Shown here piece after piece: positions 6,581 to 38,104 of a stretch of DNA of 38,104 bases (the stretch's first letter is position 1; every line of letters starts with the position of its first letter). Source of the DNA: a virus; IMG/VR virus record IMGVR_UViG_3300045988_057057, positions 1-38,104 of that record. One strand, given 5' to 3'. The notes below the pieces were generated by a model, which did not search any database, was not told where the DNA came from, and was given only the letters and a program-made list of their open reading frames with translations. Made by a program: the position numbers and the translations under genes.

Positions 6581-6657
6581 GTCTCATTAGCTCAGTTGGC
6601 CAGAGCGCGCGGCTGTTAACCGCGAGGTCGAAGGTTCGAGCCCTTCATGTGACGCCA
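6581..6657 (+). tRNA. tRNA-Asn (anticodon GTT), CCA encoded
   Basis: Manual cloverleaf. Acceptor gtctcat/atgtgac has one T-T mismatch at 4:69. D-arm is gctc-agttggcca-gagc. Anticodon arm is cgcgg-ctGTTaa-ccgcg. Variable loop is aggtc. T-arm is gaagg-ttcgagc-ccttc. Discriminator is g, then cca. Total 77 nt. Confidence 0.85.
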
Positions 6658-34976: not shown

Positions 34977-35224
34977 ATCGCAGCCCTGATTTTTTCTTTC
35001 TCAATGCCGAGAGCCTTTGCGAGCTTGAATATGTCGCAGAGCTTCCAATTGACGGTATTCGTGTCCAGCAGCCTTGAAAACGTGGCGCTGCTGCATCCGA
35101 GATACTTTGCCATATCGGCATTAGTCAATTTAAGAGCTCGCTTGCGTTCAAGGAACAGCCCCATAACATCATCTGCCGGGGGCTTGCCGAGTTTTACGCG
35201 GGACATTGCGGTCTCTCCTTTCAT
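34973..35224 (-). CDS. HTH DNA-binding protein (83 aa)
   Basis: LTNADMAKYLGCSSATFSRLLDTN is an HTH-like segment. ATGA overlap with the upstream gene. Confidence 0.65.
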   Translation of the reverse strand: MKGETAMSRVKLGKPPADDVMGLFLERKRALKLTNADMAKYLGCSSATFSRLLDTNTVNWKLCDIFKLAKALGIEKEKIRAAI

Positions 35225-35391
35225 TCAACCTGAATGTGGTCTGTTTCTTTCCGGCACTTGTAGCAGTACATTGTCTTTACATGGCCGGGGTTCGTCTGAC
35301 CGCGCCATTTTGTAGCGGGTGAACGGCAACCACAGGCGGAGCATTCAAAGATGCGCTTCTGCGGTATGACCGACGCCGGATGTCTACGCAT
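35221..35391 (-). CDS. Small zinc-ribbon protein (56 aa; internal start)
   Basis: CSACGC...CYKCRK. It overlaps the end of the Cro-like gene by 8 nt. Confidence 0.5.
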   Translation of the reverse strand: MRRHPASVIPQKRIFECSACGCRSPATKWRGQTNPGHVKTMYCYKCRKETDHIQVE

Positions 35392-35623
35392 GGGGGTCAA
35401 GCAGATCGTCGACTTTGCATCCGTAGAGTTCTGCAAGTCTGACGACGGTCTCAAGCCGGGGCAGCCACTTGCCCTTTTCCCAACCGCAAACCGTTGTATG
35501 CGAGATACCGAACGTAGCGGCTACTTCTTCTTGAGAATACCCGGCGGCTTTACGTTTTGCCTTGAACGCAGCCGCTTGCCGGGTGGAAACGGCTGATCCT
35601 GTCTTAGCGGTTCTGTTGCTCAT
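35384..35623 (-). CDS. XRE-family HTH regulator (Cro-like, first gene of the early operon)
   Basis: GYSQEEVAATFGISHTTVCGWEKGKWLPRLETVVRLAELYGCKVDDLL. GAAAGGAGG SD. It faces the switch region. Confidence 0.8.
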   Translation of the reverse strand: MSNRTAKTGSAVSTRQAAAFKAKRKAAGYSQEEVAATFGISHTTVCGWEKGKWLPRLETVVRLAELYGCKVDDLLDPHA

Positions 35624-35656
35624 GCTCCTCCTTTCTCGTAATTGTGAGATTTATTA

Positions 35657-35685
35657 TTGACACATGAGCCGGGATGTGATAATTT
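35657..35685 (+). promoter_or_regulatory. Strong sigma-70-type promoter reading rightward, away from the Cro-like gene
   Basis: TTGACA at 35657-35662, a 17-nt spacer, then the extended -10 TGaTAATTT (35677-35685). Confidence 0.55.
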
Positions 35686-35755
35686 GAAAGTGCCACCAAT
35701 CAAATAGCACATCCCACGGCTCATGCTTGCCCCGGTTCGCCGGGGCGGGGATGTG
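35663..35755. promoter_or_regulatory. GGGATGTG operator-like boxes and a 16-bp imperfect inverted repeat bracketing the promoter
   Basis: gggatgtg occurs at 35671-35678 and 35748-35755, and its complement cacatccc at 35708-35715. catgagccgggatgtg (35663-35678) versus cacatcccacggctcatg (35708-35725) forms an inverted repeat with a one-base bulge. Confidence 0.55.
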
Positions 35756-35790
35756 TCAGCGGGGGAAGTCTATCCGCTGACCTATGCAAA

Positions 35791-35919
35791 CACTGCCGGG
35801 AGACATCGCGGTTACGCCTTAATGAGATAAACGGCTATTCTTATTAAGGAGGTAACGGGATGATTTCTGTTCAGTTGAACCGGACGGAGCGGCGCAAGCC
35901 GTTCTGTCTCCCGGCGGTG
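35791..35919 (+). ncRNA. Candidate structured RNA element (multi-helix junction) enclosing an SD and a mini-ORF start
   Basis: A 15-bp helix joins cactgccgggagaca (35791-35805) to tgtctcccggcggtg (35905-35919), with one G-U. An inner 10-bp hairpin (35817-35826 / 35840-35849) covers part of AAGGAGG. An inner 7-bp stem with a GCAA tetraloop lies at 35887-35904. Confidence 0.4.
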
Positions 35920-35937
35920 CTTGTTTCAGACCAATAA
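35860..35937 (+). CDS. Mini-ORF (25 aa) with a strong ribosome-binding site
   Basis: AAGGAGG (35846-35852) sits 7 nt before the ATG. Translation is MISVQLNRTERRKPFCLPAVLVSDQ. Whether it is translated is unknown. Confidence 0.3.
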   Translation: MISVQLNRTERRKPFCLPAVLVSDQ

Positions 35938-36302
35938 AGAGCGCACATCCTTAATTGCTATCCCATGTGCATTGCACATTGTAGAAAGGGGGTGCAGCCA
36001 TTCGCTATGAGTGAAGTTTTCATAACTGCGCTTATTAGTGGCGGCTTTCCACTCTCCGTACCTGAGGCCGGAGACACACATCCGGCTGTTTGATGCGTGG
36101 ATACGCGGAATCACAACCGCGAGTGAGAACGCAAGGACAAGAAGCGCTGGGAATTAGCGCGCTGGTCATGGGACACCAACATGGCCTTGCTGCATCCGCA
36201 TCAGGTAAAATGTGGGGGAGCAAGGGCGGAAATCCCTCCGCCCAAACTCTCTACCGGTCTGCTGACGATTAGATTATATCTCACAAATATGTGTATTTCA
36301 AG

Positions 36303-36332
36303 TTCTAAATCGTGATTTCTCGCGATTTAGAA
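36303..36332. promoter_or_regulatory. Perfect 10-bp inverted repeat upstream of the nuclease gene
   Basis: ttctaaatcg (36303-36312) and cgatttagaa (36323-36332), with a 10-bp spacer, about 55 bp before the start codon. Confidence 0.45.
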
Positions 36333-36386
36333 GAATAAACAAAAGCACAGGTCTAAAACTGTGCAAATTTATAGGAGGAAACTGAT

Positions 36387-37472
36387 GTGGATACCGCCAT
36401 AATTATTTTTTTCGTCTCGATTCCCATACTAACAATTATCTCTGCAATACATGGCTGGGTGGAGGGCAAAAGTAAAGCTAAGAAAGTGGAAGAGGCTATA
36501 TCTCAGTCGGTGAATAATATCCAAAATGCAATCTTAAACGTAAAAAACTCCGAATCCCAGGCGCAACCCTGGCTCGCAAATTATATTTCAGAATTTCAAT
36601 ATGCCGCAGATATGGAAACAGCTAAAATCTTGGGAACAAAAAAGCACCCTGCGTACAAAGCGGCTGATGAAGTAAGAAGAATAGCATTGGAAAAACGAGA
36701 GTTGAATAAAAAATGCAAGATGTACGAATATCAACTCGGATTCTTGGAGACAATGTTTTCTTGGCTACCCACATTTGAAGAAATGCCCCCAGCAATAGCG
36801 GCTCTCAGCACGTATGACGGAGATGACGAGTACGACAAGGTAAGGACTCTTCTTTCCCCTGAAGAATATGCTAAGCTTTCAAGCGCACAAAAAAGCGACT
36901 TGGCTTTAAAAAGATGGAAATCGCGAAAGCGCACCGAGTGGGAGGCCGGGCGCGACTACGAGCGTTACATCGGATACAAGTTTGAATGTAATGGGTATGA
37001 TGTTGAATATGTTGGGGCACTTAACGGGAAAGAGGACAGAGGGATAGACCTAATTGCCAAGAAGGGTAACCACATAGAAATAATACAATGCAAAAGATAT
37101 TCAGCGGTGAAAAATAAATTTGTTCATGAGAATACCGTTGCGCAGCTTTTCGGAGTAACCGCAGTATATAATATGGAAAATCCTAATGAGCACGCGCAAG
37201 CCACTATATATACTTCTTCCGAACTCTCGATTGAAGCAAAGAGATTTGCCAACTATCTGCATATTGATGTAGTAGAAAATGAAAAACTGAAAGATTACCC
37301 GATTATAAAATGCAATAACAGCAAAGGCGGCGAAAAAATATATCACTTACCTTTTGACCAACAGTACGACAAAATAAAAATCAACAAAAAAGGAACAGCA
37401 ATGTATGTAGCAACTGCCGCAGAAGCGGAAAAGCTTGGTTACAGACGGGCTTATAAATGGAAAGGAAATTGA
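36387..37472 (+). CDS. Membrane-anchored Mrr-type (PD-(D/E)xK) restriction-endonuclease-domain protein (361 aa, GTG start)
   Basis: AGGAGG sits 7 nt before the GTG. N-terminal TM helix AIIIFFVSIPILTIISAIHGWV, then a long helical region. Nuclease core is YERYIGYKFECNGYDVEYVG...DRGIDLIAKKGNHIEIIQCKRY. C-terminal segment is GEKIYHLPFDQQYDKIKI...EAEKLGYRRA. GC is much lower than in the rest of the genome. Confidence 0.8.
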   Translation: MDTAIIIFFVSIPILTIISAIHGWVEGKSKAKKVEEAISQSVNNIQNAILNVKNSESQAQPWLANYISEFQYAADMETAKILGTKKHPAYKAADEVRRIALEKRELNKKCKMYEYQLGFLETMFSWLPTFEEMPPAIAALSTYDGDDEYDKVRTLLSPEEYAKLSSAQKSDLALKRWKSRKRTEWEAGRDYERYIGYKFECNGYDVEYVGALNGKEDRGIDLIAKKGNHIEIIQCKRYSAVKNKFVHENTVAQLFGVTAVYNMENPNEHAQATIYTSSELSIEAKRFANYLHIDVVENEKLKDYPIIKCNNSKGGEKIYHLPFDQQYDKIKINKKGTAMYVATAAEAEKLGYRRAYKWKGN

Positions 37473-37819
37473 TGAACACAACACTTGAAAGAATAGTATC
37501 TCTTATGCCGCACGACAAGAACGGCAATATAGAGCATGGAGCACGCAAGGTTTTCGCAGAAAGTATAGGATTGAGAAGCGGAAATCTTATTTCAGACTGG
37601 ATGAATGGTCGGTCAAGTTCCTACAAGAACTACGTGTATGAAATTGCGCTAAAATACGATGTCTCCGTAGATTGGCTGCTTGGCAACAGCGACGAAAAAA
37701 AGAAGCCCACCACCGAAAACGGTGATGGGCTGGATGCAAAGCGGCGCAGGGCGCTAAATCTTATTGAGGCAATGAACGACGAACAGTTGGACGCGCTATT
37801 GAAACTGCTTGGACGTTAA
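37472..37819 (+). CDS. CI-repressor-type HTH protein (115 aa from the ATG at 37472; alternative start at 37457)
   Basis: AAAGGAA SD sits 5 nt before the ATG, which overlaps the nuclease stop (TGATG). FAESIGLRSGNLISDWMNGRSSSYKNYVYEIALKYDVSVDWLLGN resembles the phage CI repressor N-terminal HTH. No peptidase S24 domain. Confidence 0.7.
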   Translation: MNTTLERIVSLMPHDKNGNIEHGARKVFAESIGLRSGNLISDWMNGRSSSYKNYVYEIALKYDVSVDWLLGNSDEKKKPTTENGDGLDAKRRRALNLIEAMNDEQLDALLKLLGR

Positions 37820-37985: not shown

Positions 37986-38104
37986 ATTATCTCTTTAGCA
38001 ATATTTTTATTACCCTATATATATATATATATATATATATTACTGCTGTTGTTATGAAAAAGCAAGGCGAAACTCACATTTCTATGCATTATGACGAACT
38101 GAAT
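37986..38104. repeat. Right copy of the 119-bp exact direct terminal repeat
   Basis: Identical by eye to 1-119. Confidence 0.95.

Follow-up and report, generated by a model that had tools for sequence, protein, structure and literature searches.

FuFi-1 (Rfam RF02986) is one of a few bacterial RNA motifs whose features suggested a sophisticated biochemical function to their discoverers, who found no self-cleavage (Weinberg et al., 2017; PMC5737381). According to that report, the RNA is seldom located in 5' untranslated regions (UTRs), and the main text gives no CI or cro gene context for it (PMC5737381). ROOL, GOLLD and raiA are structured non-coding RNAs that are often carried by prophages of Firmicutes (PMC5737381). 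Our literature search found no later paper on FuFi-1. Here, we analyze the genetic switch of a gut phage represented by the IMG/VR record IMGVR_UViG_3300045988_057057 (38,104 nucleotides [nt]; this whole stretch is referred to as the window) and describe a conserved structured RNA of about 290 nt on its plus strand (positions 35959-36251). It adds a new variant, which scores below the Rfam threshold, to a known RNA family without an assigned function, and we are confident that it represents a divergent member of a phage RNA class whose 3' domain is Rfam FuFi-1.

The RNA resides in a 763-bp gap (35624-36386) between genes for a Cro-like helix-turn-helix (HTH) protein and an Mrr-like nuclease. 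A previous reading of the DNA letters, referred to as the sequence-only reading, had drawn attention to this gap as GC-rich, dense in hairpins and devoid of a credible protein gene, and had proposed one large structured RNA of the ROOL or GOLLD kind, a leader of the downstream operon, or a small-peptide device. The gap is real, and its longest open reading frame (ORF) comprises 62 codons and has no family match. Its GC content was overstated, as it amounts to merely 0.50-0.55 and drops to 0.38-0.42 from about position 36250; the absence of a gene was nearly right, except that a 28-codon ORF (36007-36093) is conserved in relatives. All stems listed in that reading do exist, including those at 36067-36086, 36104-36121, 36164-36186 and 36224-36243, and in comparison with dinucleotide shuffles the DNA folds beyond chance: the minimum free energy of the RNA (35960-36251) is -119.1 kcal/mol versus -96.1 +/- 5.1 for the shuffles (z -4.5), and that of an upstream segment (35692-35925) is -116.8 kcal/mol versus -80.7 +/- 4.6 (z -7.9).

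An Rfam scan of the whole window at gathering score returned a tRNA only. ROOL, GOLLD and raiA gave no match at gathering score in the whole window, nor at E-values up to 10 in the segment 35300-36700. What emerged below the gathering score was a full-length match to FuFi-1 at 36088-36251 on the plus strand (39.5 bits, E 1e-6, model positions 1-175), and FuFi-1 is the best family at the homologous sites of related contigs as well (26.9 bits in L002, 22.9 bits in L001 and L003). The G.U pairs present in the helices fit the plus strand only, as they would be A.C mismatches on the other strand; hence, the plus strand is the RNA.

Our comparison relied on three viral contigs and six metagenome contigs with related switch regions. 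The RNA block (35945-36260) is common to all of them and has diverged to about 80% identity, forming four variants: V1 (the window and L130), V2 (L002, L129, L132), V3 (L001, L003) and V4 (L131, L136, L137). The gap is a mosaic of four parts rather than one RNA. Its left part (35624-35756) is 98-99% identical wherever the same Cro-like gene is present and has diverged in L131; it is followed by a variable cargo slot (35755-35926), the RNA block, and a right part (36265-36386) in which a leftward promoter is conserved, palindromes vary and a terminator-like hairpin lies on the minus strand. A structured RNA is thus present as had been proposed, but it spans 35959-36251 only, and the stems that had been emphasized most (35700-35925) belong to a separate module that is replaced by protein genes in other relatives. 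A blastn 'distant' search of isolated phages with positions 35300-36500 gave no match; viral contigs scanned with the 28-mer of the leftward promoter, an RNA core pattern and the UUCG hairpin of the 5' module returned the same three contigs only; species-representative genomes gave three chance matches and no homologue. Among metagenomes, a pattern search that missed the V3 type, for which a 5-nt gap is needed, yielded 10 matches, 4 of them by chance.

Each helix was checked directly in six distinct sequences of the four variants, and class membership was judged from the Rfam matches together with this direct helix counting. The RNA begins with a hairpin, AUGUGC-AUU-GCACAU (35965-35979), that covaries (AUGCGC/GCGCAU in V4, GACCG(C)/(G)CGGUC in V2 and V3). 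The Shine-Dalgarno (SD)-like motif GAAAGGGGG (35984-35992) is invariant in all variants; RNAalifold pairs it with a C-rich run, CUCUCC (36050-36055), so that it may also serve as a helix arm. The long-range helix P0 joins UACCUGA (36059-36065) to UCAGGUA (36201-36207), the counterpart of the family's GGGUAAA strand. P0 is found independently by RNAalifold and is compensated in V4 (UACCCGA/UCGGGUG), V2 (UGCCCGU/ACGGGCG) and V3 (UACCCGG/CCGGGAG). Hairpin H0 (36067-36086; GCCGG/CCGGC, GGCUG/CAGCU in V2) possesses a GACAC-rich loop. Hairpin P1a, CGCGG-AAUCACAA-CCGCG (36104-36121), is the counterpart of GCaGAACcAAAACuGC in the Rfam consensus; it exhibits the A/C-rich 8-nt loop of FuFi-1 and covaries (UACGG/CCGUA, UGCAG/CUGCG). 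The P2 junction enclosing P3 and P4, with its AGAAG and UGCA strands, is recognizable as CAAGAAGC and CUGCAUCC, which align to the consensus; within P2, an A-U pair becomes U-A in V2 and G.U pairs occur in V4. The stem of P3 (36144-36160) is paired in all six sequences as GCGCU/AGCGC, GCGCC/GGCGC, GGGCG/CGCCC or GCGUU/GACGC, and P4 (36161-36190; core 36164-36170/36180-36186, loop GGGACACCAA) likewise pairs in all six, with a different stem sequence in each variant. The 3' hairpin P5 (36224-36243), again paired in six of six, presents the loop AAAUCCC (36230-36236) to the P3 loop GGGAAUU (36149-36155), and this pseudoknot covaries as GGGAAUU/AAAUCCC, GUAGCU/AGCUAC and GUGCUUU/AAAGCAC. Compensatory changes in relatives, which had been suggested as a check, are thus found in the helices of 35959-36251; none are obtainable for the near-invariant module at 35755-35926.

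The window RNA shares with FuFi-1 (RF02986) P1a and its loop, the AGAAG/UGCA junction, P3, P4, a GGUAA strand, the 3' hairpin, the pseudoknot and a location in the immunity region by a CI-like gene. It differs in several respects. The 3' hairpin is followed by AAACUCUCU instead of a U-tract and does not figure among the terminator-like sites of our scan, and no U-tract follows this hairpin in the relatives of the window type either. A recognizable promoter of its own is lacking, since at the place where standard loci carry one the window type has TTAATT, CTAATT or GTAATC without a -35 box; we found no sigma-70 promoter directly upstream of the RNA. The outer helix P1 is weak, comprising only 4 bp (GUUU/GAAC in V1 and V4, GUUC/GAAC in V3). 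The P4 loop contains GACACC and not GAAA, the GC content is higher, and of the conserved family strand GGGUAAAcAAAUUUgG, present here as CAGGUAAAAUGUGGGGG, only the GGUAA core is kept, inside the 3' arm of P0.

Three further helix candidates were rejected. A minimum-free-energy helix UGCGU/ACGCA (region 36093-36097 with 36128-36132) is broken by V2 and V3 without compensation; the P1 that Rfam places upstream of H0 in L002 has a 5' arm (UGCCCGU) that pairs better with the GGGCG strand, as P0; and a hairpin domain drawn by RNAalifold under the 28-codon ORF (35994-36048) contains no pair with a compensatory change. Two details of the fold were noted in passing. By eye, positions 35959-35963 are complementary to 36099-36103, the strand just before P1a (UAUCC/GGAUA in the window, AUGCC/GGCAU at the P1 internal loop of the standard type, GUGUC/GGCAC in L020), which might represent a tertiary contact or a pairing that substitutes for the 5' hairpin. 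The loops of H0 (36069-36080) and P4 (36171-36179) both carry GACAC(C)(A)A; it is kept in most variants and absent from standard FuFi-1, whose P4 loop is GAAA.

The relationship to FuFi-1 becomes clearer once the standard family is viewed at its full extent. A pattern derived from the Rfam consensus matches at least 120 viral contigs (loci L008-L127 in IMG/VR), and 12 of the 13 loci scanned are FuFi-1 at 80-144 bits. In 18 diverse sequences, 89.6% of the cells of the Rfam-like structure plus pseudoknot are paired and 41 of 47 pairs show double changes. Across the standard alignments, the pseudoknot between the P3 loop and the 3'-hairpin loop is 94-97% paired, with 5/6 and 5/5 pairs covarying. 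Conservation continues for about 200 nt upstream of the Rfam model, up to a TTGaca-17-TAtAAT promoter located 6-8 nt upstream of a 5' hairpin. The transcript would then run through this hairpin, GAAAGGAG, a start codon with a mini-ORF, two new long-range helices, the FuFi-1 domain and a terminator. The 5' hairpin occupies the same position as that of the window RNA, 3-4 nt before GAAAGGAG, whose window counterpart is GAAAGGGGG. The full-length structure (13 sequences, 336-388 nt) is 93.5% paired with 55 of 79 pairs covarying, including 6/7 and 6/9 pairs of the two upstream helices; none of 500 shuffles reaches it, and slid controls are about 41% paired. Rfam holds no family for this upstream part. 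Of this 336-388-nt RNA (e.g., L014 7890-8320), no more than the 3' 40-50% seems to be represented in the Rfam FuFi-1 model, which suggests that the family model itself is incomplete.

This extended FuFi class, as defined from the 13 full-length standard sequences, features a 5' hairpin, GAAAGGRG, a start codon and a long-range helix to GGGUA. The window possesses a corresponding element for each of these: the hairpin at 35965-35979, GAAAGGGGG, ATG 36007, and P0. In standard RNAs, RNAalifold forms a helix between UGCCU, located inside the mini-ORF, and the AGGGUA strand; it does not vary among these sequences and is the counterpart of the window's P0, which covaries. The 5' domains of the two types share their architecture only and cannot be aligned, and in comparison with the standard full-length RNA the window has the extra hairpin H0 and no middle domain.

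The mini-ORF requires separate consideration. In the window, a candidate 28-codon ORF with ATG 36007 (36007-36093, plus strand; MSEVFITALISGGFPLSVPEAGDTHPAV) may be translated, judging from its pattern of divergence: third codon positions account for 11 of the 17 differences between V1 and V4 (p 0.008), and of the changed codons 8 are synonymous and 5 non-synonymous. V2 and V3 keep the frame open as well, over 43 codons with a frame shift after GGF in the former and over 32 codons with another N-terminus in the latter. In 37 distinct standard sequences, the presumed start codon lies 8-10 nt after GAAAGGAG (TTG in 29, GTG in 3, ATG in 3, TTA in 2) and opens an ORF of mostly 12 codons, MT[KQ]LL[NT]LP[AC][PS]LL. 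One may ask if the peptide itself is the effector, either as the product of a small-protein gene or in a type I toxin-antitoxin-like device in which the folded RNA would be the UTR and the transcript of the leftward promoter the antisense regulator. In both types, the 5' hairpin is followed at a fixed distance by an SD and a start codon, the SD is potentially sequestered, and a long antisense transcript is predicted from the leftward promoter; all of this would suit such a device, and Fst and BsrG-type systems are convergent layouts sharing a terminator. However, the peptides comprise 12 residues in most standard loci and 28-43 here, none has a hydrophobic run of sufficient length for spanning a membrane (at most about 12 consecutive residues are hydrophobic), the C-terminus is not conserved, as V2 illustrates with its frame shift, and no codon-position signature is present in the standard loci. 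What is conserved is the RNA fold and not the peptide, and we regard this explanation as improbable. The small-peptide device originally envisaged had been built on a different, 25-codon ORF, which is a frame-shifted remnant; the mini-ORF at the 5' end of the RNA is the conserved candidate.

The genomic context of the standard RNAs is informative with respect to function. Among 37 standard loci with enough flanking sequence, 36 have a gene of 94-291 codons less than 500 nt downstream on the same strand, and those scanned encode CI-like proteins (HTH_3/HTH_19, some with Peptidase_S24). A small convergent ORF ends 0-6 nt (in a few cases up to 59 nt) from the RNA 3' end in 24 of the 37, so that the terminator is shared; these ORFs are mostly 63-87 codons long, and four of the five scanned match HTH/Cro-type families, two of them weakly. 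The CI-like gene follows directly after the RNA terminator in 13 of the 37. On the other side of the RNA, the next gene is often leftward, e.g., one for an ORF6N antirepressor-like protein. With the cro-like ORF convergent and the next gene often leftward, the standard RNA is oriented antisense to early lytic transcription and sits in its path immediately beyond cro.

The window RNA is likewise found beside CI/Cro-type HTH genes, with the Cro-like gene to its left and the nuclease, CI and integrase genes to its right, and it is flanked by two predicted promoters that face each other. The rightward promoter P(+), read directly as TTGACA-N14-TGA-TAATTT with an extended -10 (35657-35685), is located where it had been proposed; it is unlisted in our consensus scan, its -10 fitting 3/6 positions only. 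At the equivalent place, L131 keeps TGTGAGATTT, TTGACA-17-TAGAAT and the first transcribed bases despite diverged flanks, and P(+) therefore looks real. The leftward promoter P(-), TTGAAA-17-TATAAT (36301-36273, minus strand; 11/12 consensus positions), had gone unmentioned in the sequence-only reading; it is the best promoter match in a scan of the region and lies just beyond the RNA 3' end. TTGCAA-17-TATAAT stands in its place in L003, L131, L136 and L137 (V3 and three V4 sub-variants), with differing spacers. Moreover, L130 has two real minus-strand genes between the RNA and the Cro-like gene, for which no candidate promoter nearer than P(-) was found; this supports a functional P(-). In contrast to standard FuFi-1, the window RNA is thus situated between a leftward promoter and the Cro-like gene and not downstream of cro.

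Operator-like sites accompany both promoters. The exact 9-mer TTGTGAGAT occurs only twice in the window, at 35642-35650 near the -35 of P(+) and at 36278-36286 beside the -10 of P(-). The former is contained in a site just upstream of the P(+) -35 (35639-35653, plus strand) that is an inverted repeat of 36275-36289 (15 nt, 87% complementary) and to which a repressor would be expected to bind. A palindrome, TTCTAAATCGTGA/TCGCGATTTAGAA (36303-36332; 13-nt arms, 92% complementary), lies beside the P(-) -35 and is a candidate repressor operator as well; relatives have other palindromes at its equivalent, and the differences track the CI type. The presence of these likely operators (35639-35653, 36275-36289, 36303-36332) in a hotspot of cargo exchange could be taken to mean that the conservation is a DNA-level feature only, with palindromes acting as operators, recombination sites or an origin, and with covariation arising from symmetric protein-binding sites in the absence of any functional RNA. 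Compensated long-range helices, a loop-loop pseudoknot, strand-specific G.U pairs and a full-length covariance-model match are unlike operators, and the standard relatives carry their own promoter and intrinsic terminator; this explanation is accordingly the least credible of all, and we give it hardly any weight.

Building on the observed anatomy, fold, family relationship and synteny of the locus, we infer expression of the RNA in lysogens, convergent antisense action, and mutual exclusion of mini-ORF translation and the full fold. Since the window RNA has no recognizable promoter or terminator, it would be made as part of the lysogenic transcript, which would start at P(+) and run on into the nuclease, CI and integrase genes. 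P(-), which shares the TTGTGAGAT motif with P(+), would be under repression in the lysogen; when active, it would fire head-on into the RNA, and its transcript would be antisense to the whole RNA before reaching the Cro-like and early genes. The rightward and leftward units would overlap by about 575 nt, and the RNA would be the sense product within this overlap, i.e., the lysogeny-side partner in a convergent cis-antisense arrangement. With the rightward unit on, P(-) and any leftward transcript would experience interference; with P(-) derepressed, synthesis of the RNA and of CI would be cut off, and the switch would be sharpened. Translation of the mini-ORF and the full fold would exclude each other, because P0 and the possible SD-sequestering helix overlap the mini-ORF. 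Standard FuFi-1 would follow the same logic in another layout, with its own promoter and terminator, converging with cro and lying in antisense to the transcription that proceeds from cro into the later early genes. Taken as a whole, we consider this explanation the best one at hand, at a confidence that falls a little short of even; the proposed mechanism by itself, a convergent cis-antisense RNA on the lysogeny side, is put forward more tentatively still.

A number of observations weigh against this account. The match of the window to FuFi-1 (39.5 bits) stays below the gathering score of 59.6, the Rfam helix P1 is weak and, in V2, disrupted, and only four independent window-type variants were found. 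The start, end and expression of the RNA are predictions from sequence. Two of the 37 standard 'start codons' are TTA, and the standard mini-ORF shows no codon-position signature, so that the case for its translation consists of the SD and the interchange of start codons. The nearest upstream ORF of at least 90 codons is on the minus strand in only 20 of 30 standard loci, as judged from naive ORF calls. L129 and L132 lack P(-) and yet retain the RNA. Lastly, a pure antisense role leaves unexplained why unrelated phages share loop and junction sequences, among them GAACCAAAAC and GGGUAAACAAAUUUGG; conserved unpaired motifs point to a partner in trans.

The last two of these observations lead to the main rival explanation, according to which a structured RNA acts in trans by binding a protein, the ribosome or another phage or host RNA, with its place in the immunity region serving lysogen expression only and the head-on promoter being incidental. 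Strong conservation of unpaired loop and junction sequences and of the pseudoknot across diverse standard loci speaks for such an RNA, as do the two relatives without P(-). It would also conform to the view of the discoverers of a sophisticated biochemical function without self-cleavage (PMC5737381). However, the linkage to CI-like (36/37) and cro-like (24/37) genes is tighter than expected for generic lysogen-expressed cargo, and the window variant has lost or changed conserved unpaired motifs, given the GACACC of its P4 loop and its degenerate GGGUAAAcAAAUUUGG strand. We therefore view a trans-acting RNA as a serious but minority alternative to the convergent cis-antisense arrangement.

A third possibility is a cis-acting leader or attenuator of the nuclease-CI-integrase operon, in which mini-ORF translation or a ligand would pick alternative folds and thereby set read-through, stability or translation; the sequence-only reading had raised a sensory leader or attenuator for the nuclease and repressor genes. 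The window RNA does lie upstream of this operon on the same strand without a terminator, and in the absence of a U-tract after its 3' hairpin, rightward transcripts probably continue into the nuclease and CI genes. P0 and the GGGGG/CUCUCC helix overlap the mini-ORF and its SD, and the CI-like gene directly follows the RNA terminator in the 13 standard loci mentioned above. Such a role may hold for the window variant but is hard to reconcile with the family as a whole: a cro-like convergent small ORF separates the RNA from the CI-like gene in 24 of 37 standard loci, so that the RNA is not a 5' UTR there, and its rarity in 5' UTRs was noted by the discoverers (PMC5737381). In the window itself, P(-) and the minus-strand terminator-like hairpin stand between the RNA and the first gene, and no feature resembling a ligand pocket is known. 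We thus consider a leader function unlikely.

The gap has a number of other features. The terminator-like hairpin GCACAG..CTGTGC with TTTTGTTTAT (36345-36364, minus strand) is kept in V1, V3 and V4. No rightward promoter was found between P(-) and the nuclease gene. A weak promoter-like site, TTATCA-18-AATAAT (35653-35682, minus strand; 9/12 positions), overlaps P(+) and might tentatively be assigned to the Cro-like gene, its score being no better than chance expectation. A helix formed by arms flanking the -10 of P(+) (35663-35678 with 35709-35726) was discarded, as it is not conserved and L130 alters one arm only. Downstream of P(+), hairpin A (CACAUCCC/GGGAUGUG; 35707-35756, plus strand) encloses a 7-bp UUCG hairpin (35729-35746); it is 98% identical in L130, L129 and L132, whose homology to the window stops at 35754-35762.

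It is there that the variable cargo slot begins (35755-35926), which in the window holds a strongly folded small-ORF module on the plus strand. The module comprises an 8-bp hairpin (35755-35762/35774-35781), a long-range helix with 19-nt arms that are 89% complementary (35787-35805/35905-35923), a hairpin (35804-35827/35839-35862) in which AAGGAGG (35846-35852) is buried together with ATG 35860, and a GCAA hairpin (35887-35904). It is nearly invariant in its few carriers (the window and L001-L003) and consequently gives no covariation evidence. L130 fills the slot with two minus-strand phage genes (phrog_1029, 1e-61; phrog_997, 2e-31), and different genes fill it in L129 and L132. The 25-codon ORF behind AAGGAGG (35860-35937, plus strand) is the frame-shifted remnant referred to above: L001-L003 have 86 extra bases right after the ATG and an intact 34-codon ORF encoding MFKIFNLNRPMARLRYCHGHWVVKLNRTAKELFS, whereas the window is in another frame. 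The long-range helix with the adjoining UGCUUGUUU is unconvincing as a terminator, as its loop is branched and 100 nt long and the U-run short. In L001 and L003, about 190 additional bp lie between the equivalents of window positions 35925 and 35945; on their minus strand, a 51-codon ORF (MKKIAKEIEYFREVLNEKRCADRNERLYYFKSIIEFSLGVLLGHFLGLFLF) runs toward the small-ORF module; its C-terminus is hydrophobic, and it may encode a small membrane protein or toxin.

As for the genes flanking the gap, the Cro-like HTH gene (79 codons; 35384-35623, minus strand) is the first of the leftward early operon; its product matches Pfam HTH_3 (2e-13) and PHROG transcriptional regulators, and the relatives' copies are 97% identical. 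Overlapping the 3' end of this gene is an ORF of 77 codons (35221-35454, minus strand) whose product contains CxxC...CxxC motifs and shows a match to phrog_1257 (8e-7), a zinc-finger family annotated as 'ribosome associated inhibitor A'. As had been read from the sequence, the nuclease and CI-like repressor genes come next downstream. The former (361 codons; 36387-37472, plus strand) encodes a protein with a hydrophobic N-terminus and a match to Pfam Mrr_cat (1.6e-10), for which PADLOC matched no defence family; it is AT-rich cargo (GC 0.34-0.45) between the RNA and CI. The latter (120 codons; 37457-37819, plus strand) matches PHROG repressor families and shares 30% identity with the CI-like genes that follow standard FuFi-1 RNAs. 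A direct repeat of 119 bp at its two ends (1-119 = 37986-38104) identifies the window as a complete, circular phage genome with a length of 37,985 bp, and across the circular junction the integrase gene (146-1309; phrog_1) is next after the CI gene. This repeat has a (TA)n run (about 38015-38040) whose length varies among relatives. A tRNA gene (6581-6654, plus strand; Rfam tRNA, 63.8 bits) is located just upstream of the structural genes.

The order to the right of the RNA is constant in the window-type loci: RNA, variable cargo, CI-like gene, integrase. The slot between the RNA and CI (36387-37472 in the window) is a cargo hotspot, as seen in L130, L131, L136, L003, L129 and L132, whose genes at this place are unrelated; several of their products have hydrophobic N-terminal stretches, and none of those scanned matched a family of known function. 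They may represent exclusion or defence genes expressed in the lysogen. L003 additionally carries a skipping-rope RNA (RF02924; 1016-1095, minus strand; 74.7 bits, gathering score 36.7) beside a 119-codon ORF; it is located past the CI-like gene, some 0.6-0.7 kb from the equivalent of the window CI gene, and there is none in the window itself.

Collectively, these data explain the long 'empty' switch region of a gut phage and give FuFi-1 a fixed place in temperate-phage switches, adjacent to CI and facing either cro or the early lytic promoter. They reveal a GC-rich subclass that lacks its own promoter and terminator, is embedded between convergent promoters, and through its covariation establishes the long-range helix P0, which is invariant in the standard family; a better family model could be built. 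The function of FuFi-1 becomes accessible to ordinary phage genetics via lysogenisation frequency, spontaneous induction and the timing of early genes. One might speculate further, although we deem it doubtful at present, that FuFi-class RNAs constitute an unrecognized third switch component beside CI and Cro in many temperate phages of Firmicutes and Fusobacteria: pseudoknotted RNAs of 290-390 nt, placed head-on to early lytic transcription, whose translation-sensitive mini-ORF/GGGUA helix would link the cell's translational state to the decision between lysis and lysogeny or to how stably lysogeny is maintained, with the Rfam model corresponding to the 3' 40-50% only.

How, then, does this RNA compare with other known systems? 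In relation to ROOL, GOLLD and raiA, the window RNA is smaller and differs in architecture and context. Like hok/sok- and fst-type toxin mRNAs, which are folded mRNAs with a 5' hairpin, an occluded SD and long-range 5'-3' pairing, it has a 5' hairpin, a possible SD pairing, long-range pairing, a candidate small ORF and a predicted convergent antisense transcript; unlike in these systems, the peptide is non-conserved and without a membrane-spanning stretch, and the conserved entity is the 3' RNA domain.

A closer resemblance exists to the cis-antisense immunity RNAs of temperate phages, namely lambda OOP, P22 sar and P1/P7 c4, which are simple stem-loops of 70-80 nt and, to our knowledge, do not form a sequence family across phages. 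As in these systems, the RNA is encoded against the direction of lytic transcription in the early or immunity region, and by analogy one would expect its production in lysogens and an action against early or antirepressor genes; in several standard FuFi-1 loci, the first leftward gene to follow encodes an ORF6N antirepressor-like protein. The FuFi class is set apart by its length of 290-390 nt, its multi-domain, pseudoknotted fold, motifs conserved across unrelated phages and a possible mini-ORF, and antisense action is in its case predicted from gene layout. Coliphages 186 and P2 possess face-to-face lytic and lysogenic promoters that act by transcriptional interference, with an overlap of tens of bp. 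The locus studied here likewise appears to oppose a rightward CI-integrase unit to a leftward lytic unit through convergent promoters, with the strong promoter on the lytic side and the same operator motif predicted at both, and it may have a second, classical back-to-back promoter pair beside the Cro-like gene. It differs from 186 and P2 in that the predicted promoters are separated by an overlap of about 575 nt, and in that this overlap is occupied by a conserved structured RNA.

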